This document shows, piece after piece, positions 6,764-46,667 of a DNA stretch of 64,000 nucleotides; position 1 is the first letter of the stretch; each line of letters opens with the position of its first letter. Location: sequence record OR924452. One strand, given 5' to 3'. Position numbers and translations under genes: made by a program. The notes below the pieces were generated by a model, which did not search any database, was not told the origin of the DNA, and saw nothing but the letters and a program-made list of their open reading frames with translations. Origin of the DNA: Escherichia phage 241.

Positions 6764-6973
6764 TTTCCTTGGATGTCCAGGGGCAAAACAAGTTTGTTTG
6801 TCCCTGCATATCACCCATCCTTCCGAACGGGCTTGTCTAGCACAATCAGCCCAAGTTTCACCAGCATAAGACTTCATACCGCATCTTGGGTGGTGCTCTT
6901 GCCAAGCCCAATCACAAGATTTGCATTCCACGCATTCACAATACAAATCTAATGTGTATCCTGCGGTAATCAT
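6755..6973 (-). CDS. Cys-rich small protein (72 aa), possible zinc-binding
   Basis: CxCxxCxxC cluster plus additional Cys/His. Confidence 0.35.
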   Translation of the reverse strand: MITAGYTLDLYCECVECKSCDWAWQEHHPRCGMKSYAGETWADCARQARSEGWVICRDKQTCFAPGHPRKSG

Positions 6974-7381
6974 TTAATCCACCAGGCGTTCGTAAATTTT
7001 TTGACGGAACTCATTCCCTTTTGCACAACCTGTGGCCAGCAAACGAGTACCGCCTGTCCCGATGACACTGATCGTTGAAAATCTTAAAATACGGCCTGTG
7101 ATGGACTGATCCACTTTGATGGTCTCAACTTTACCCAGGCGAAGTTCATCAGCATCACGGTGGATAAACCCTCGTTTTACGATAACCCGTTTGTTGGTGA
7201 CTGCGAATTCTGTGGTCATCACATTCAAGATAGTTGGGATCAGGAATAACAAACTGAAACCAAATGTTGGAATAATCGTTAAAGCGACGAGAACATAAAT
7301 CCAGAATCCACTCCACCAAGTCGGACGAGTGAATGCAACCACATATTCATTTTCGCTCAGCATACGGTCGACGTAACGCAT
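6974..7381 (-). CDS. membrane protein with bacterial PH-like domain (135 aa)
   Basis: Two N-terminal hydrophobic helices followed by soluble domain. Confidence 0.4.
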   Translation of the reverse strand: MRYVDRMLSENEYVVAFTRPTWWSGFWIYVLVALTIIPTFGFSLLFLIPTILNVMTTEFAVTNKRVIVKRGFIHRDADELRLGKVETIKVDQSITGRILRFSTISVIGTGGTRLLATGCAKGNEFRQKIYERLVD

Positions 7382-7382
7382 T

Positions 7383-7904
7383 TTAATTCCTTACTTTGTC
7401 AGGATTAGATAAGATTTGTTCGTATCCGACTTCTCCTTGATAGTCGAAAACATGCTGAAGAATCGCCATATCGTCTACCATCCGATAAACTTCAATTCCA
7501 GCGTTCATCAATTTTTTGATTCCATCCATAATACGATATGGCTCACGATAATATACTTTATCGATTTTACCGCTATCTATTATCTTTTGAGTGCAATTAG
7601 GGCAAGGACTATGTGTCACAAACATAACCAACCCTGTGAAATCATCTACATTTTCGGGGATACGCATTAGAGCATTTTCCTCCGCATGAACGACACACGG
7701 GTTTGTAACAATTTGCCCGTGTTGTTCCATCTCACAAACATTCGGCATGCCAGGAGGCGTTCCGTTCCATCCTATAGCCACAGGCTGATCAGTTTCAGGG
7801 TTTACAATAACACAACCGACTTGCAGACGCCGAGCATAACTGGTTACACCATATGCTGCAGCTGATCGCATATGAGCAAACATCATACGTGGTTTGATAG
7901 CCAT
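7383..7904 (-). CDS. cd: dCMP deaminase
   Basis: HAEENAL and PCPNC zinc-ligand motifs of cytidine/dCMP deaminase family. Confidence 0.75.
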   Translation of the reverse strand: MAIKPRMMFAHMRSAAAYGVTSYARRLQVGCVIVNPETDQPVAIGWNGTPPGMPNVCEMEQHGQIVTNPCVVHAEENALMRIPENVDDFTGLVMFVTHSPCPNCTQKIIDSGKIDKVYYREPYRIMDGIKKLMNAGIEVYRMVDDMAILQHVFDYQGEVGYEQILSNPDKVRN

Positions 7905-8308
7905 TATTCACCTCTCAGAAGACGAGCGAAGCGTTCAACAATGCGATTGCGCGGCTTCTCGGGAACGATGTCTTCTACCGTAATGGTCAGTGTGTAGTTT
8001 GTAGAAAAATCGCAATCGGACTTTGTGATGATTTTCCGTTCACCAGGCAGCGGATACATCGTTAAAGCCCTATCGACGGAATCTAGAGAAGAACCGACCA
8101 AGTCCACCACCCTTTGGTGCCCGAACGATAATGGACCCACGACATCCTTTTCAAAAATTTCAATCACGTCGGTGACTAACACACCCAATGCAAGTCTTAG
8201 TCCAAGGTTCTGATTTTTATCCCCTAGTGTGTACACAAACTGCCGACGCCACAACTCTTTCCGGTCTTCAGAACGGACGAGAGAATAATTCAAATGGTAT
8301 TGTTTCAT
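7904..8308 (-). CDS. hypothetical protein (134 aa)
   Basis: ORF in operon; start overlaps upstream stop. Confidence 0.4.
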   Translation of the reverse strand: MKQYHLNYSLVRSEDRKELWRRQFVYTLGDKNQNLGLRLALGVLVTDVIEIFEKDVVGPLSFGHQRVVDLVGSSLDSVDRALTMYPLPGERKIITKSDCDFSTNYTLTITVEDIVPEKPRNRIVERFARLLRGE

Positions 8309-8637
8309 TTCACCAACACCTTTTCCAGGAAGAAGATCATGTCATCCTGGTCGGCACGGCCAAAGATCTGACCGAGGGACACCATGGAATGAACCTCTTT
8401 GACAATCAGGTCTTTGCCTGTTGCACCGCTGTTGTCCAATTCGAGAATTGTAGACATGCGCTCAACCATATGAGGTGGATGATTGATATAACGTTGAAGA
8501 TACTTTTCACGCAACGCAATTTTTTCGATAAGATCTGACATTTCTGCATTCTCTTCTGAATACAGACGTTCTTTAGATTTCAGTTCTTCGAGGCGTTCGT
8601 ACATTTCTTTTAATGAAATCATGTTTGTCTCTCCCAA
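8305..8637 (-). CDS. hypothetical protein (110 aa)
   Basis: ORF in operon. Confidence 0.4.
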   Translation of the reverse strand: MGETNMISLKEMYERLEELKSKERLYSEENAEMSDLIEKIALREKYLQRYINHPPHMVERMSTILELDNSGATGKDLIVKEVHSMVSLGQIFGRADQDDMIFFLEKVLVK

Positions 8638-8639
8638 TA

Positions 8640-8668
8640 AATTAAGGGGAAGTATACCTTCCCCTTCT
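8640..8668 (-). terminator. hairpin AAGGGGAAG-tatac-CTTCCCCTT, terminator-like
   Basis: Perfect 9-bp stem between two minus-strand genes. Confidence 0.35.
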
Positions 8669-8684
8669 TCAATAAAATAAATTA

Positions 8685-9035
8685 TTATTCAGTACAAGCT
8701 CGACCAAGTTCAGTCAGGCGGTAGAATGTTACTTCTGATTTCGGCCAATGCTTATACTCTTCAGAGTCATCATGAACCATAGTGAACGCAGGTTCGATCA
8801 GACCTTTAGATAATAATGATTGCCCTGAACGTGTATCCCACGGATCACCTTTTACAGAACGAAACCCACCAGCAATCGGAGGGGCATGGAATGTCCATAC
8901 TGTCTTGCCCTTTTCATTCGTCCAAGACTTCGGATTGAAATACCAATGACAAAGGCGTCGATCATCATGGGTTTCAAAATTCAGCATTCCCAGAAGGACA
9001 CAGAGTTGATGTCCTGTGATTCTTGGCTTTTTCAT
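8685..9035 (-). CDS. hypothetical protein (116 aa)
   Basis: ORF in operon. Confidence 0.4.
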   Translation of the reverse strand: MKKPRITGHQLCVLLGMLNFETHDDRRLCHWYFNPKSWTNEKGKTVWTFHAPPIAGGFRSVKGDPWDTRSGQSLLSKGLIEPAFTMVHDDSEEYKHWPKSEVTFYRLTELGRACTE

Positions 9036-9364
9036 AAGATCCCCAAGTCAGTAAGGTAACGATAAGACAGGACTACAGATAGAAATCCAATTAACATCCA
9101 AGACGACAGGATAGGCTTGCAATTTAGCGTAGTCTTTCCATTGGGTATGTTGGGACTTCCAGTAATAACAACCGAATCCGTTTTAGCTCTCAACGTCATG
9201 ACAGAACCCATGAGAATGATTGGGCGCACATAATGTCCGTCGCGATTGCGCTTTACAATACATGGTGAAGAAAATCGCAGGAACGGATCACCGCTTTTAT
9301 AACCGAACAACTCGACCTTTTCTATTTCTTCGGGAACCTTTTGTCCAGGAAAGAATATTCTCAT
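9032..9364 (-). CDS. hypothetical protein (110 aa)
   Basis: ORF in operon, overlapping stops/starts. Confidence 0.4.
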
Positions 9365-9921
9365 AATATGATTCCTAAATTTGTGTATAACAATTCAGCT
9401 AGAGTAACAGGTCGTTTGAATTGTTCCCAGCTGCAGTTCAGATATTCACGTTCTTCGCGGATCTTTTCGTGAAGATGTCCATGGATATTATACGCCCAAC
9501 GATCTAATTGATACGGAACGTGTGTAGTCAGAATCCGACCGACAGAAGTATCCCGCTCATACATGGCACCAAAGGATGTAATCCAGCCCTCCAGATACAA
9601 CCGCATTAACATTTTGAAACTGTCGTGGTTGCCCTGTGCCACCCTGATGATAAAGTTCGGACGCCATTCATCGGGAACGGGGCGGCGCTTGAACTCATCA
9701 ATGTTCCGCTTGGCTCCTTCGCGCATCAGGCGTATGAACCCCTCAGCGCCGATAAAGCAGATGTCCCCCGCCAGTTCAAGGACATCCCGAGATTTCAGCC
9801 CTTGGAATATGCTGTCTATAACCGCAGCATCATGGGATTCTTGAGTATCGAATCCACGAGGTTTAAAGACTTTTTTATGCCCGAGGTGAGTGTCACCAAG
9901 GTACTTGACAATTCCTGCCAT
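9361..9921 (-). CDS. calcineurin-like metallophosphoesterase (Ser/Thr phosphatase family)
   Basis: GDTHLGH ... GDI ... GNHD motifs. Confidence 0.6.
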
Positions 9922-10388
9922 CAGATTCTTTCCTTCTCGGAGATACGGTCATGTGCGTTCTTTAACATTGCGTCCGACCAGTTAGACCAATCGAATACAT
10001 TAATAGAACTCACACCGTTATACAAATCCAATATAGTGGGAGAGAGCTGAATATTTAGAGCGCAAGGATCATCACTTTCAACGACCTTCAACCAAAATAA
10101 TTTTTTGTCTAGTAATTCGCGGGAGATACGTCTATACTTGGTAGCAGCTTCTTCACACCACCTTTCTAAGATCATCATCAATTCCCTTTCGATCCCAAAC
10201 CGAAACTCTGGTGTATTGGGTAAGCCGTGATAAGCAGACTTGAATCGATATTCCGTGACTTCATTTAATCGTGATATTAAGGGAACGACGAAACACGTTT
10301 GGAACTCATATTTCCAAGCTCTTTCGAGAACACTAATAATCTCATCACGTTCACATTGACTTAATTTCATTATGGCCTCCTCATCCAT
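9921..10388 (-). CDS. hypothetical protein (155 aa)
   Basis: ORF in operon. Confidence 0.4.
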
Positions 10389-10711
10389 TCTAATATTGGG
10401 ATGCTTACAAACCCTTTATGCCAGCGGTGAGGTTTATGGCCTCTGTTGTGCTCCAACAAACAAGTATCTGGAGGAACACTGAAATGGATACCATCGATAT
10501 CGTAATAATTCCCGTCGATAAGAGTGTACACATGCCCTTCAATCTGGCTGTAATGAATCTCCGCTTGCGGATAAACGTGTTTGAGAACCAGGGCGACTTG
10601 ATAGCACTTCCCGTTCTTTCCCACATACTCAACATCCACCTGTTGTGGGAAAATGTCCTTGATCAGATTTATCAATATGGTGATATCATTCACCACGACA
10701 GATGGTTTCAT
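10370..10711 (-). CDS. hypothetical protein (113 aa)
   Basis: ORF in operon. Confidence 0.4.
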   Translation of the reverse strand: MKPSVVVNDITILINLIKDIFPQQVDVEYVGKNGKCYQVALVLKHVYPQAEIHYSQIEGHVYTLIDGNYYDIDGIHFSVPPDTCLLEHNRGHKPHRWHKGFVSIPILEWMRRP

Positions 10712-10724
10712 CTTCTCATCTCAC

Positions 10725-11387
10725 CTATGATAACTCATAGCGATGGCGGGTACATGCAGGGCAATTACAGTCTTTTCTCAAAATTGGCATTTCACACCAC
10801 GTCATCAAACCATGTATTGGAGACATGTGGTGATAAAACCATGATTTTTTGAGACTAATCAAAGGATATAAAATTTCAATTGGCCTTTCCCCGTCTCTTG
10901 TCATCATATTGTATCCTTCGATGACCTTATTGAAAGCTGGGATCCAGTGGATCGCGTCGTCCCCGTTGACATATGCCAATATGTATGTGGGAGGCAAACT
11001 CCGGCCTTTAAATTGTGTGTTTAATAACCATATCGGGGCTTGTGCTAAACACGCACGAAACCCGCCGTCCGGCACGTGAATGCTACTAATCGGTTCTTGG
11101 TGATGAGTCCAACGATGCATAAGAAGCGGAGCATTCTTGTTGATCCAATTATAAATTTTATTTCGCGCCCAATTCTCACGTTTGGATTTGAAATTATTAT
11201 TTTCAAGATGGCAATACACAGTATGAACCGAATAACCTTTCGATAATAACCAAACCAACATGTATGTGCTATCCACGCCGCCTGACCAAAACAATGTCAC
11301 TTCTTGATTATTTTCCGGCAAAGGTGCATCCCCTTGAAGGACACGGTACACAAATTCACAATCAGATACAGAGACAACGATTTCCAT
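10725..11387 (-). CDS. PP-loop ATP pyrophosphatase, QueC-like (7-cyano-7-deazaguanine synthase family)
   Basis: SGGVDST PP-loop motif and C-terminal Cys cluster (C..CxCxxC..R) as in QueC; 30-aa N-terminal extension. Confidence 0.5.
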   Translation of the reverse strand: MEIVVSVSDCEFVYRVLQGDAPLPENNQEVTLFWSGGVDSTYMLVWLLSKGYSVHTVYCHLENNNFKSKRENWARNKIYNWINKNAPLLMHRWTHHQEPISSIHVPDGGFRACLAQAPIWLLNTQFKGRSLPPTYILAYVNGDDAIHWIPAFNKVIEGYNMMTRDGERPIEILYPLISLKKSWFYHHMSPIHGLMTWCEMPILRKDCNCPACTRHRYELS

Positions 11388-11710
11388 TAAATTATTCCCC
11401 TCAAAGAGTCATTGATTCTACGCAATTCGTTTTCCACCTTTATCTTCATATTTTTGTCGTCGTTCACGAAAATCATTTTATCTAAATCTTCGCCATTAAT
11501 CTTTGTATAAAAATAAATGTCATGCTCAAAGAAAATCGTTTTTCCAACAGAACGCATGGCAAAGAATGTCGCAATAGTTCTCGATAATGGCTTGAACTTA
11601 ATAGCATTAAAACGCAAAGCCTGATATAGGGGTTTTAATGTTCCCAGTCTGATACAGTGCTGAATGATTTCTTGTTCTTTCATCCCATTGTCCGAGTGAC
11701 GGGGTTTCAT
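11387..11710 (-). CDS. hypothetical protein (107 aa)
   Basis: First gene of operon; stop overlaps QueC-like start. Confidence 0.4.
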   Translation of the reverse strand: MKPRHSDNGMKEQEIIQHCIRLGTLKPLYQALRFNAIKFKPLSRTIATFFAMRSVGKTIFFEHDIYFYTKINGEDLDKMIFVNDDKNMKIKVENELRRINDSLRGII

Positions 11711-11760
11711 CGGAAACCCCCTATGTTTGTTGGTTAAACAATGATACTTTAGTCAAGATA

Positions 11761-11784
11761 TAGAAAAGCCCCTTTCGGGGCTTA
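11761..11784 (-). terminator. rho-independent terminator (AGCCCC-gaaa-GGGGCU + U-run on minus strand)
   Basis: Stem-loop plus U-tract immediately after stop of 11782..12072. Confidence 0.45.
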
Positions 11785-12072
11785 TTCTTCATCAGATTTG
11801 AAAAGGTTCCATCGGCCTATTCCATACCATTCTCCAATATTGTTGGAGTAGCGGGTTGTCCTAACTCCACCGATTTCGTACCCCCATTTGAAGAAACTCC
11901 ATCTTTCCTTTAGGGTGGGTGGTTTATTTCCGGTTGCCAAGGAGCAAGCTGTAAGCCAACGTGCGATACTAATGGCTTGAAAAATTGGATGAATAAACGA
12001 ATAATACACAACACTCAGAGTTATAATGACGAAGACGCATGTTGTAATCACCCCGACAATTTCAAAGAACAT
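11782..12072 (-). CDS. small membrane protein (96 aa)
   Basis: N-terminal hydrophobic helix. Confidence 0.4.
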   Translation of the reverse strand: MFFEIVGVITTCVFVIITLSVVYYSFIHPIFQAISIARWLTACSLATGNKPPTLKERWSFFKWGYEIGGVRTTRYSNNIGEWYGIGRWNLFKSDEE

Positions 12073-12146
12073 TTATAACCCCCAATATTGAACACACACT
12101 ATGATGAACGTTGTGATCGTGAATACCCAGGAGAAGATAGAAAGTT

Positions 12147-12779
12147 TCATTCTTCTACCTTTAGCCCCATCAGGTCTTCCATGGTCTTCTGAATACGAAG
12201 CCAATCAAGAGCAGCGTCATAACGAGGATCATGATAGACCATGCCTTCCAGTTCCCAAGCCTTGATACCAGCATAACGATCCTGTTGCCCAACGCCTTTC
12301 AGCCAGCTCACGATGTCGAAGGTGTGATGGTAATCCCAAGGCTCGTTGGAGTCCTGCTTACATGTCACCTCAATGATATGTTGGGCCTTGCGGAGATCAA
12401 ACAAGTTTCGGTCACACCAGTCAACCGAGCGCGGGTCTATCCCAAGACGATGACAACCCTTGCGGATTTCATCGGCCAGCTGGAAGATAGAGGTGTCCTG
12501 ATCGGTCGGGTACAGGCTGACAGCGCGAGCAGCATCACACGGGTTTCGCTTACCCGTACCCAACCACCATTCAACAGTCCCCTGATCCTTGACGCGGCCA
12601 AGTTTAGTCTGCTCTTTGACATCCAACTTTATGAACGTCGTTCGCTCTTCAACGAGTTGCTGAAGAGTGTAGCGTTTGGTCAGGTCGGCGATAGTATGCG
12701 CCCAGGATAACATAATAGCATCGTCCCAGCGCCCCAGAGTCTCGCTATCGGCGACAGCCAAGAAATTAGATTTATACAT
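12147..12779 (-). CDS. dexA: DnaQ-like 3'-5' exonuclease (T4 DexA-like)
   Basis: Exo I motif VADSETLG and Exo III motif YHDPRYDA; size matches DexA. Confidence 0.55.
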   Translation of the reverse strand: MYKSNFLAVADSETLGRWDDAIMLSWAHTIADLTKRYTLQQLVEERTTFIKLDVKEQTKLGRVKDQGTVEWWLGTGKRNPCDAARAVSLYPTDQDTSIFQLADEIRKGCHRLGIDPRSVDWCDRNLFDLRKAQHIIEVTCKQDSNEPWDYHHTFDIVSWLKGVGQQDRYAGIKAWELEGMVYHDPRYDAALDWLRIQKTMEDLMGLKVEE

Positions 12780-13116
12780 CGGTTTCCCCCGCTTTCTCTA
12801 AAAGAAGTTTCAAAGGATATGTCCCACAAGCGGTGGCATATTCAACTCTGAAATATGAATTATCGTTCATGGCGAAATTGCGATGAGGAAAATATTCACC
12901 ATCATCAAAACCACCCATCCCTCCACCGACGCGATATTGTTTCAATTCTACTTCGCCACCGTAACGCAGTTGGGCGTAGAGACCGATAGGAGCGCGAACA
13001 TAATGCTCCAGCCACACCCAATTACCGTCATGTAGACGAGTGGGCAAAAATGCAAACCGTACCTTGGGATGAAGAACGGCTTTAGCCAACATTTCTTCCG
13101 TCACTTCAGATTTCAT
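12772..13116 (-). CDS. hypothetical protein (114 aa)
   Basis: ORF in operon. Confidence 0.4.
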   Translation of the reverse strand: MKSEVTEEMLAKAVLHPKVRFAFLPTRLHDGNWVWLEHYVRAPIGLYAQLRYGGEVELKQYRVGGGMGGFDDGEYFPHRNFAMNDNSYFRVEYATACGTYPLKLLLEKAGETDV

Positions 13117-13718
13117 CCGATGCTTTCCTCTTCGATGACGTCTTCTTCATTAGGAACAACAGAGATCCCAAAGTCGATCATTTGAGAGAGTTCTTGTAAA
13201 TCCTTTTCGAATCCATCCCCTTCCCGAATATAGAATACTGGGACCACGCGGCGGCGAGTATCTTCAAAGATGGTTTCGGCGATTTTGTTAATCTGGCCTA
13301 CCACATGTGTGAGATTCAAGCCACCAATACCACAACCGATGGCGGGCAAACCGACATAGACAGTTTCATCAGCTTTGGCTTCAACGATATCATGAATTTG
13401 TTCAAACATGATCTGGACTGAGCTAATGATAGATGGCATGCGAGCATTGGGACCTGGGTAAAATTGAGTATACAAATTGAATCCCCAGACACCAGTGTCA
13501 TGATCAAACGCATAGGACATGTTCCCCAAGCGCTGTTCCGGACCACGTTCATCTAATTGGTCGGCGCGGTAAATCTCTGGGAAATTCAATCGAACGTGAT
13601 TGGCGATACCCGCGCCCATTACAGACCAACAATTTGCGCCGTGAGCAAAGGCATTGATAAGATTGAAACTCGTGGCGGCTTTTAATAAATCGCCATTTGT
13701 GATAATATAAGTGGTCAT
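13113..13718 (-). CDS. macro-domain protein (ADP-ribose binding/processing)
   Basis: NAFAHGANCWSVMGAGIA and later GLPAIGCGIGG match macro-domain motifs; start set at ATG 13718 with GGAG SD. Confidence 0.5.
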   Translation of the reverse strand: MTTYIITNGDLLKAATSFNLINAFAHGANCWSVMGAGIANHVRLNFPEIYRADQLDERGPEQRLGNMSYAFDHDTGVWGFNLYTQFYPGPNARMPSIISSVQIMFEQIHDIVEAKADETVYVGLPAIGCGIGGLNLTHVVGQINKIAETIFEDTRRRVVPVFYIREGDGFEKDLQELSQMIDFGISVVPNEEDVIEEESIG

Positions 13719-13951
13719 GCGTAACGTCTCCATTGTATAATTTCGTTGTCGACACAACTGACCTGAATGATACACATATTCTGGCGATGGTCGGTGAGTG
13801 TAATAATAAAACTGTCTGGTTGTGACATGACACGATTAACAGATATCCCGCGCGACATCAAACGAAAGCAAATTTCTTGATACAAACGTTGCATATATCC
13901 TGAAACAGAAGCCGATTCATATGCGCGTTCAAATTCGTATAATTCGTTCAT
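13715..13951 (-). CDS. hypothetical protein (78 aa)
   Basis: Stop overlaps macro gene start (ATGA). Confidence 0.35.
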   Translation of the reverse strand: MNELYEFERAYESASVSGYMQRLYQEICFRLMSRGISVNRVMSQPDSFIITLTDHRQNMCIIQVSCVDNEIIQWRRYA

Positions 13952-44990: not shown

Positions 44991-45071
44991 TTAACTTCCT
45001 TAACCCCAGATTGTTATGAAGTCGGCATGCACACCTTCTTCATCTTCAGGAAGTCACACTCATTGTTCTGG

Positions 45072-45144
45072 TTGCTTCAACTGGATTCGAACCAGTGACC
45101 TCTCCCTTATCAGGGGAACGCTCTACCTACTGAGCTATGAAGCA
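45072..45144 (-). tRNA. tRNA-Ile (anticodon GAU)
   Basis: Hand-folded cloverleaf: 7-bp acceptor, D-arm GCUC/GAGC, anticodon loop CUGAUAA, T-arm ACUGG-UUCGAAU-CCAGU; 73 nt. Confidence 0.7.
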
Positions 45145-45210
45145 ATTTGGTGCCCGTTAGAGGAGTTGAACCTCAGCACTCTGGTGATCAACCCAGAGAG
45201 TCGCGCCTCA
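45145..45210 (-). ncRNA. tRNA-like 3' module (T-arm-like + acceptor-like + CCA) abutting tRNA-Ile
   Basis: Sequence ...GAGGUUCAACUCCUCUAACGGGCACCA ends 3 nt before tRNA-Ile 5' end; only distant 5' partner (GCCCGUC, ~145 nt upstream). Confidence 0.2.
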
Positions 45211-45498
45211 TCTATTTGATGGTCAATTTGGGTCTTGCAAAACCTTTACTGACCGTCTACAAACAGACTGCTTGACCGAGCGTAATTTGGACGGGCTTCA
45301 CACCCGATTGTGCATTTGATCTGCCGTAGCCCAACTCCCCGCGCCGAAGCGCCGATTGGTTAACTGGCACCAGTGCCTTCTGGTTCGATCTCCTGTAACT
45401 TTACAGGCTTTGCGCCCGACCATTTCTGGAAGTTGAGGCATCGTTTCCGATGTGGAGTCCCCTCATTTTACACAGCTGGCTGCAACGCTTACCGTGTT

Positions 45499-45582
45499 TG
45501 GTGTGAGTGGATGGATTCGAACCACCGCGCTGTTACGGGGAGATTTACAGTCTCCTGCATTCGACCGCTCTGCCACACTCAC
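45499..45582 (-). tRNA. tRNA-Tyr (anticodon GUA), type II with long variable arm, encoded CCA
   Basis: Hand-folded: acceptor GUGAGUG/CACUCAC, 3-bp D-stem, anticodon loop CUGUAAA, 12-nt variable region, T-arm GGUGG-UUCGAAU-CCAUC. Confidence 0.65.
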
Positions 45583-45589
45583 ATTTAGT

Positions 45590-45659
45590 CTACCGCCGCG
45601 TGCTGGGCCACGCTCGAGGACATCGGCCATCCTTCCTCAGCTAATCCACGCGGCGGTAG
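45590..45659. repeat. 13-bp perfect inverted repeat (CTACCGCCGCGTG / CACGCGGCGGTAG), 44-nt spacer
   Basis: Read directly; lies immediately 5' of tRNA-Tyr on the transcribed strand. Confidence 0.5.
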
Positions 45660-45826
45660 ATTTGGATCAGAGTGTACGGTGTAGCATTCCGCAGGGGTGC
45701 ACCTACTGTAGCCCTTCCACTCTGAAATTGGTGGGTGTTACTTCCGTCGGGTTCAGATTCCGTTCGGCTATTGGACTTCGCTTCAAGAGCTTGTCGTTCG
45801 CGTACTTCGTGCTTACTTGCTTTCGT

Positions 45827-46261
45827 TCACACCCATTGTCTGGTACGTATTTCTTGAATAACTTCGTCAAACAAGAAATCCTTTAACCATTTTACTCCCA
45901 CCACCTGATTATTCTTAGGCGGCGTTACCCTCAATCTAACATTCTTTGGATATTGTTTAGGATCCACCAAGACTTCTGTGCAAGTCTCAGGATGATAGCC
46001 ATAATACAAGTCAACAACATCCGAATGGTAAACCGATTTACATTTACCATTGTAATAATTCGTGGAACTGGCATCAAGAATAAAGGATGCCTTATCTTGT
46101 AAAAGGGTTTTGCATTGTACTTTGTACAAGCGCCCTTCTATATCCAAAACAAAATCATACGGCGCATTATCACCGAAAGGTTGAGAAACTGTTAGCCCCT
46201 GCTCAGTGCATTTGAACAAGAACCTAGTCTCACCTATCATACCCCGTTGTTTCGAATTCAA
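45827..46261 (-). CDS. hypothetical protein (144 aa) within tRNA island; possible nuclease-like
   Basis: ORF between tRNA-Tyr and tRNA-Met; PYDFVLD...E.RLYKVQCK loosely resembles a PD-(D/E)xK motif. Confidence 0.35.
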   Translation of the reverse strand: MNSKQRGMIGETRFLFKCTEQGLTVSQPFGDNAPYDFVLDIEGRLYKVQCKTLLQDKASFILDASSTNYYNGKCKSVYHSDVVDLYYGYHPETCTEVLVDPKQYPKNVRLRVTPPKNNQVVGVKWLKDFLFDEVIQEIRTRQWV

Positions 46262-46273
46262 ATTATTCCGCCT

Positions 46274-46498
46274 TTATCCGTGCTTGTTCGCTTCAATTGC
46301 CCTTAATTGAGCATCAGCGTCAGCTTTGGTGTCATGTGTCCCAAGAACCTTCGTCTTGGTGTGGTCAAGGACAACCCACTTGTCGCCTCGCTTTTCAACA
46401 AACTCAACAATCTCTTTGTTGTCAGTAGCGAGGCCATCCCACTCAGCAAGAAACTCACCGAACGTTTTCATCATACTCACCAATCGTTTATTGAACAA
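46274..46498 (-). CDS. hypothetical protein (74 aa)
   Basis: ORF within tRNA island. Confidence 0.35.
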   Translation of the reverse strand: MFNKRLVSMMKTFGEFLAEWDGLATDNKEIVEFVEKRGDKWVVLDHTKTKVLGTHDTKADADAQLRAIEANKHG

Positions 46499-46591
46499 CT
46501 GGTTTATTTAGGTGCTCCCGAGGCGGTATTTTAATCCCGCGATCCCATCTCGCCTGTCGTAGACCGGAGCATGCTGACAGTCCAACATATT

Positions 46592-46667
46592 TGGTGACCC
46601 TGGCTGGACTTGAACCAGCGACCAATCGATTATGAGTCGACTGCTCTAACCACTGAGCTACGGGGCC
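46592..46667 (-). tRNA. tRNA-Met (anticodon CAU), encoded CCA
   Basis: Hand-folded: acceptor GGCCCCG (one C-A mismatch), D-arm GCUC-AGUGGUUA-GAGC, anticodon loop CUCAUAA, T-arm GCUGG-UUCAAGU-CCAGC. Confidence 0.7.

Follow-up and report, generated by a model that had tools for sequence, protein, structure and literature searches.

A virus-specific branch of the QueC/Cap9 family of PP-loop ATPases encoded by a Kuttervirus and other phages

The QueC-like protein of Escherichia phage 241 is a genuine member of the QueC/Cap9 lineage, as its match to PHROG 1550, its family profile and its hhalign comparisons demonstrate. It is encoded in a stretch of 64,000 nucleotides of sequence record OR924452, referred to here as the window. 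The protein probably represents a catalytically competent, virus-specific branch of this family (PF06508) that acts as an ATP-dependent ligase and not as the preQ0 synthase of a DNA pathway; it is almost certainly not making preQ0 for DNA modification. The observations concern the fold, the motifs, the limits of the family, the missing partner genes and the genomic context, while the adenylation/amidation chemistry is what we infer for the protein. The gene had been recognised as odd as early as 2019 (Hutinet et al.), and no reported function for it was found in the literature searched. New here are the extent and virus restriction of the clade, its proximity to Cap9, an inventory of retained and lost residues, the replication/recombination context, and a tail motif in distant members.

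Over the 4 kb around the gene (positions 9000-13000), nucleotide identity reaches 99.9% with Salmonella phage PS5 and 99.3% with phage Vi01; the window is that of a Kuttervirus (ViI-like Ackermannviridae). The orthologue, Vi01_023, carries the label “QueC-like queuosine biosynthesis” in RefSeq; elsewhere it is called “alpha hydrolase” or “hypothetical”. The ORF starts with an ATG (11387-11385) overlapping by 1 nt the TAA stop of the upstream ORF (TAATG), and its product ends with ...RHRYELS. The gene and its surrounding signals are as follows:

10725..11387, minus strand: CDS of the virus-type QueC/Cap9-family PP-loop ATPase, 220 amino acids, orthologue of Vi01_023
11397..11402, minus strand: GAGGGG ribosome-binding site, 9 nt 5' of the ATG
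11307..11387, minus strand: N-terminal extension, residues 1-27, specific to the Ackermannviridae clade, with a predicted helix at residues 9-17
11766..11783, minus strand: hairpin/terminator-like site upstream of the gene block, a possible unit boundary (consensus scan only)
8644..8666, minus strand: terminator-like hairpin downstream of the co-directional block 022-028 (consensus scan only)

The N-terminal extension was originally predicted to be 30 residues long; about 27 residues precede the first β-strand. It can be considered real, and not an artefact of start-codon choice, since it is conserved in 20 Ackermannviridae-type homologues and is confidently modelled as an extra helix (pLDDT about 89-96 in the AF2 model). 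Most of the wider family is devoid of it.

The position of the gene between dexA and that of the dCMP deaminase is conserved among the genera of Ackermannviridae; protein identity drops to 37% in Erwinia phage phiEa2809 and further to 31% and 24% in phages of Serratia and Vibrio, respectively. Its Kuttervirus neighbours (YunG-like, phosphoesterase, DexA, dCMP deaminase) are probable phage early genes, and the predicted “early operon” setting is plausible from gene order and from the hairpin/terminator-like sites at 11783-11766 and 8666-8644. The ORFs of the same block encode a YunG-like protein (PF24591), DUF7618, a phosphoesterase and unknown PHROGs, and are uninformative as a clue to the function of the QueC-like protein. 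Two of them, located downstream, belong to recently defined Pfam families: Phage_YunG-like (PF24591; 10370-10711, minus strand) and DUF7618 (PF24594; 9032-9364, minus strand). The gene at 13113-13775 (minus strand) encodes a 220-residue protein assigned to PHROG 335 (“phosphatase”) that has no Pfam match and resembles macro-domain proteins of the PDB (5m3i, E 4e-5; 7omu, “Macro domain-containing protein”, E 2e-4). The product is possibly an enzyme that binds or removes ADP-ribose, and the gene is a candidate for counter-defence. Elsewhere, the window harbors three tRNA genes, Ile(GAU), Tyr(GUA) and Met/Ile2(CAU), at 45069-46667 (minus strand), a set differing from that of Vi01 (Met, Asn, Gln, Tyr, Ser).

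The match of the protein to the Pfam QueC family (PF06508) reaches 23.9 bits against a cutoff of 22 and spans the PP-loop only (residues 33-64), as does the 25-bit match to the PADLOC QueC model. All 41 sampled members of the viral family match PF06508, with a best E-value of 1e-11, and the match to PHROG 1550 (“QueC-like”) is strong. The score against the QueC equivalog TIGR00364 is, at 18.4 bits, far below the cutoff of 150.3. When compared to the PDB, the family profile retrieves QueC (E 1.6e-9) and Cap9 (E 1.4e-8), both over the full length, whereas other PP-loop enzymes appear with E-values of at least 1e-3 and over the PP-loop only. A comparison with hhalign of the viral family (161 sequences) yields a probability of 99.2% and an E-value of 7e-19 with the Cap9 family (120 sequences), versus 97.5% and 3e-11 with E. 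coli-type QueC, whose alignment is shallow. The protein is about equally far from QueC and Cap9, leaning to Cap9. The AF2 model (pLDDT 84, pTM 0.85), of which Cap9 is the top Foldseek match, combines a Rossmann-like PP-loop fold with a C-terminal Cys4 zinc site, and its nearest structures are those of QueC and Cap9. TilS, ThiI, MnmA, TtuA, LarE, ArgG, GMPS and NadE neither exceed the family HMM cutoff nor provide the closest fold. The QueC-type PP-loop ATPase of the original prediction is therefore upheld as to family and zinc cluster, with the reservations that the Pfam match is confined to the PP-loop and that TIGR00364 fails. The profile searches do not reassign the protein to a PP-loop family other than QueC; instead, they set it in a separate branch of the QueC superfamily, virus-specific and failing the equivalog.

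The canonical QueC signature comprises SGGxDS, YxQxHxxE, VPxRN, YPDC, K165 and C(x)8CxxCxxC (Libby et al. 2026, PMC13329287), and the residues essential to E. coli QueC are Y35, R99, Y131 and Y189 (PMC13329287). In Cap9, the deazaguanine is held by D117 and stacked between Y115 and R86 (bioRxiv 10.1101/2025.04.06.647259). The corresponding elements of the viral protein are:

11265..11285, minus strand: PP-loop S35-G-G-V-D-S-T41, predicted to bind the ATP pyrophosphate, aligned with SGGxDS of QueC and Cap9
11175..11201, minus strand: N63-N64-x2-K67-x3-E71, family motif at the start of helix 2, from the alignment
10944..10961, minus strand: D143-D144-x3-W148, aligned with D117-C118-x3-F122 of Cap9 (YxDCxxxF motif)
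10752..10796, minus strand: zinc cluster C198-E199-x7-C207-x-C209-xx-C212, from the alignment, with motif definitions of PMC13329287

The SGGVDST motif and the C-terminal cysteine cluster on which the original prediction was built are thus both present, at residues 35-41 and C198-x8-C207-x-C209-xx-C212. All four zinc cysteines are in place, although their Cx8CxCxxC spacing is one residue shorter than the C(x)8CxxCxxC of QueC. The first of them is followed by the invariant E199, yielding a Cap9-like “CE” instead of the QueC “CY” and occupying the position of QueC Y189. At helix 2, N63-N64-x2-K67-x3-E71 replaces YxQxHxxE of QueC and Y/FxQx5E of Cap9: the amide residue and the glutamate are kept and the aromatic is lost. 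In terms of QueC numbering, Y35 aligns with L61 (Leu/Ile in the family) and Q37 with N63, the histidine is gone, and the glutamate is retained as E71. The R99 of VPxRN aligns with Q116 or A117, and no conserved arginine is found there in the wider family; Q116 is invariant at the RN position, while R111, five residues upstream, is conserved in the Ackermannviridae clade only. The region of Cap9 R86 aligns, with low confidence, with F110/R111 or Q116. K181 is kept and corresponds to the QueC lysine. In the YPDC region, hhalign against QueC sets W148 or I149 at Y131. Cap9-based alignments set D143 at the base-binding aspartate and indicate that the loop bearing the stacking tyrosine is deleted in the viral family; their registers between strand 4 and helix 4 conflict with the QueC-based ones, and the mapping of the pocket is therefore only partly secure.

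Invariant or nearly invariant positions include the PP-loop, N63/N64, E71, Q116, Y139, D143/D144, P175, K181, E199 and the four cysteines, as judged across clusters only about 25-30% identical. The invariance of the replacement residues at such divergence indicates a pocket that would be remodelled but functional, and not decayed. Canonical QueC is rejected from the equivalog score, the signature residues and the absent partner genes.

In the mechanism we favour, the protein would bind ATP through its SGGxDS PP-loop, the Cys4 zinc site being structural. A substrate oxygen, most likely that of a carboxylate as in QueC and Cap9, would be adenylated with release of PPi, and an amine, probably other than free ammonia, would then displace AMP to form an amide. 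Host-made 7-carboxy-7-deazaguanine (CDG) is the one acyl donor established for the QueC/Cap9 lineage, and the loss of motifs does not exclude it, since QatC likewise is devoid of the canonical ones. Among the options originally proposed, a different amidation, possibly using a host intermediate, best fits this evidence.

The family extends far beyond Kuttervirus. A profile search of 1.84 billion cluster representatives returned 1421 matches at E≤1e-3 and 636 clusters at E≤1e-10, most of them ~200 residues long, aligned over their full length and without the N-terminal extension. In IMG/VR, 61 loci were identified, among them those of Vibrio phage YC and of jumbo phages, for instance Pseudomonas phage Noxifer; Ralstonia phage RSF1 also possesses a member. 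When one genome of each of 185,579 prokaryotic species was scanned in the same pattern-based way, which is of limited sensitivity, only 7 weak matches came up, mostly on MAG contigs. The clade is large and almost virus-only. Except for one weak HTH, the C-terminal extensions of longer homologues contain no Pfam domain. Some viral contigs contain paralogues: three in L058 (7163-7879 and the adjacent 7876-8499, plus a third copy) and two in L034, which suggests diversification of the substrate or of the target.

Clustering of the neighbours in about 50 loci reveals that, in diverse phages, the genes of the clade sit among replication, recombination and nucleotide genes. SNF2 helicases are found nearby in 17 loci, RecA/UvsX in 11, NUDIX proteins and dCMP deaminases in 8 each, PolB and SbcCD in 7 each, and DnaB in 6; topoisomerase II, a gp32-like SSB, FEN, UvsW, SMC/Rad50 and a PARP-WGR protein complete the list. 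The PARP-WGR gene lies directly downstream of the QueC-like gene in L021 (10677-11948). Neighbouring genes also include that of an SNF2 helicase with a LAGLIDADG insertion (L043, 6818-9652) and that of a DnaB helicase with an intein-splicing domain (L034, 8201-9994). In the SNF2-PolB lineage, a conserved 120-residue ORF is located directly upstream of the QueC-like gene (L037 9657-10022, L042 9637-10002, L045 312-671, and also L043 9636-9998); it begins with Met-Gly in three of the four cases, recalling the N-terminal glycine acceptors of Cap9 and QatC.

The tails that follow the zinc motif are unrelated in sequence among distant members. Nevertheless, Q[LM]x[LFM]x[FL] or Q[LM]x[LF]F, as in QLSLDF, QLKLEF and QLDLF, occurs in 13 of 132 tails (about 10%), versus 0.32 expected from shuffling (2000 shuffles, maximum 3). 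This QLxLxF/QLxLF motif resembles the bacterial β-clamp-binding motif. It is carried by the family representatives P0046, P0052, P0055, P0072, P0084, P0100, P0107, P0139, P0161, P0162, P0163, P0166 and P0167. The window protein does not possess it, which makes the motif a feature of the family at large, with no direct bearing on the window gene.

A tentative sub-case of the preferred reading is a Cap9/QatC-like enzyme by which CDG of the host queuosine pathway, or a related acid, would be conjugated to an amine of a macromolecule. The target could be the N-terminus of a phage or host protein, or something associated with the replisome or with DNA, and the purpose phage DNA metabolism or counter-defence. 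Applied to the clade as a whole, and with similar reserve, its members might form a replisome conjugating ligase, some of them clamp-tethered via a C-terminal QLxLxF, that would use ATP to link a carboxylated small molecule, possibly host CDG, to an amine of a protein or of DNA. Several lines argue for such a conjugation: Cap9 is the closest structure and profile, and shares the “CE” start, the Asp-x4-aromatic element and the minimal size; in other phages the gene adjoins those of SNF2, RecA/UvsX, DnaB, PolB, SbcCD, UvsW, gp32-like SSB, FEN and topoisomerase II; the tail motif is well above its expectation; and one lineage has the upstream Met-Gly ORF. Conversely, no partner gene is conserved across lineages, the ORFs adjacent to the Kuttervirus gene do not begin with Met-Gly, the window protein is without the tail motif, the Y115 and R86 of Cap9 appear not to be conserved, and the contexts could simply reflect early/middle gene neighbourhoods.

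The 7-deazaguanine pathway was searched for with the DpdA, FolE, QueD, Gat-QueC and QueE proteins of phage 9g. tblastn against the window and the whole Vi01 genome gave a best E-value of 0.1, the annotation of Vi01 contains none of FolE, QueD, QueE and DpdA, and none of the ~50 viral loci links the QueC-like gene to queD, queE, folE or dpdA. The absence of FolE, QueD, QueE and DpdA from the window, as originally noted, is thus confirmed, while the proposal that the protein feeds a 7-deazaguanine DNA modification encoded elsewhere is not supported: partner genes are missing from the complete genome of the near-identical Vi01 as well. Besides, LC-MS of ViI DNA identified dA, dG, dC, dT and a single fifth nucleoside, 5-NeOmdU, with no deazaguanine peak (PMC5889632), which speaks against such a modification; published data confirm the 5-NeOmdU result for another Ackermannviridae phage. 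A link to this thymidine hypermodification was considered and rejected: five other gene products suffice for 5-NeOmdU in vitro (PMC5889632), and the clade is found in many unrelated phages. Hutinet et al. (2019) had discarded QueC singletons and named the protein of ECML-4, a Kuttervirus, as likely another ATP-pyrophosphatase subfamily.

A genuine preQ0 (or ADG) synthase working on host CDG, and serving to increase queuosine in host and phage tRNAs (Tyr, Asn) or to feed a minor DNA modification, is improbable. The protein passes the PF06508 threshold and retains the zinc motif, the PP-loop, K181 and probably the base-binding aspartate. The phage encodes tRNA-Tyr(GUA), and Vi01 also tRNA-Asn(GUU); both are queuosine substrates and therefore leave some room for a queuosine-linked role. 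In L021, a tRNA cluster (7416-9630; Tyr-GUA, Lys, Tyr-GUA, Asp-GUC) is located 266 bp upstream of the QueC-like gene, placing the homologue after two tRNA-Tyr genes and one tRNA-Asp gene. Against this synthase stand the wide margin by which the TIGR00364 equivalog fails, the replacement of three of the four essential E. coli QueC residues, the QueC that the host already has, the virus-only distribution with 0 of 50 loci linked to queD, queE, folE or dpdA, and the LC-MS profile of ViI DNA.

Slightly less probable still is a modifier of tRNA or nucleotide bases that would adenylate a base carbonyl, as do TilS, ThiI, MnmA and GMP synthase, for example in a lysidine-type reaction on the phage tRNA(CAU). 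PP-loop enzymes commonly act on nucleobases, the phage has a tRNA with the anticodon CAU, dCMP deaminase and NUDIX genes figure among the neighbours, and in L020 the homologue directly follows a phage isoleucyl-tRNA synthetase gene (6930-9980; TIGR00392, 700 bits against a cutoff of 621) that ends 9 nt before it. With regard to a tRNA link, this adjacency and the tRNA-Tyr/Asp cluster of L021 are two anecdotal cases only. Finally, a non-catalytic remnant or decoy, sequestering for instance ATP, CDG or a host defence protein, would account for the lost canonical substrate-pocket residues and is very improbable, the ATP-binding, metal-site and family-specific polar residues being invariant across very divergent members, as is the pattern of an active enzyme.

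In hundreds of phage genomes, automatic annotation names this gene “QueC-like queuosine biosynthesis” or even “7-cyano-7-deazaguanine synthase”, suggesting a deazaguanine DNA modification that these phages do not have. QueC-family enzymes of anti-phage defence conjugate a nucleobase to proteins, as shown for Cap9 and proposed for QatC. Given this precedent, a large, conserved, virus-only sister clade located in replication/recombination modules is an obvious candidate for unexplored phage chemistry. Well-studied phages of Salmonella and E. coli that are open to genetic work, among them ViI, CBA120 and Det7, offer a direct way of testing this. If the replisome-ligase reading is true, the clade would mirror bacterial deazaguanylation on the viral side, or would stand for a new DNA or protein modification of low abundance, or for a counter-defence.

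Several named systems provide points of comparison. Phage 9g gp06 (Gat-QueC/QueC) and the viral protein are both phage-encoded members of the QueC superfamily. The 9g-type Gat-QueC/QueC genes are found in FolE-QueD-QueE-DpdA clusters, whereas the Kuttervirus gene is not; 9g Gat-QueC matches the window by tblastn with an E-value of 3.7 only, on the PP-loop, and the ECML-4 singleton was explicitly set apart from the 9g-type proteins by Hutinet et al. (2019). With canonical QueC, the viral protein has SGGxDS in common, but not YxQxHxxE, VPxRN or Y189; QueC is linked to queD/queE/folE, while the viral clade is not and is restricted to viruses. QatC resembles the viral protein in having a QueC-family core with a remodelled active site without the canonical QueC motifs (PMC13329287). 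Its use of CDG has been proposed despite this loss (PMC13329287), its chemistry being still unproven. QatC is larger (~400 residues), with N- and C-terminal extensions and a motif set of its own that are absent from the 220-residue viral protein, and it is encoded together with qatA, qatB and qatD, whereas no qat genes are present here.

The closest solved structure and profile are those of Cap9 of type IV CBASS (PDB ID 9NTO, chain B). Cap9 belongs to a defence operon, whereas the viral protein is phage-encoded, without a CD-NTase, Cap10 (TGT) or Cap11 neighbour. The partner of Cap9 presents an N-terminal glycine in the active site, while the ORFs adjacent to the Kuttervirus gene start with MKPR/MKEQ and MKPS. 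The extra N-terminal helix is found in the Ackermannviridae clade and not in Cap9, and the stacking residues Y115 and R86 of Cap9 appear to have no conserved equivalent in the viral protein, in which Q116 is invariant nearby. Cap9 and the viral protein resemble each other in the “CE” zinc start, the aligned Asp-x4-aromatic element (D117...F122 in Cap9, D143...W148 in the viral protein) and a minimal size.
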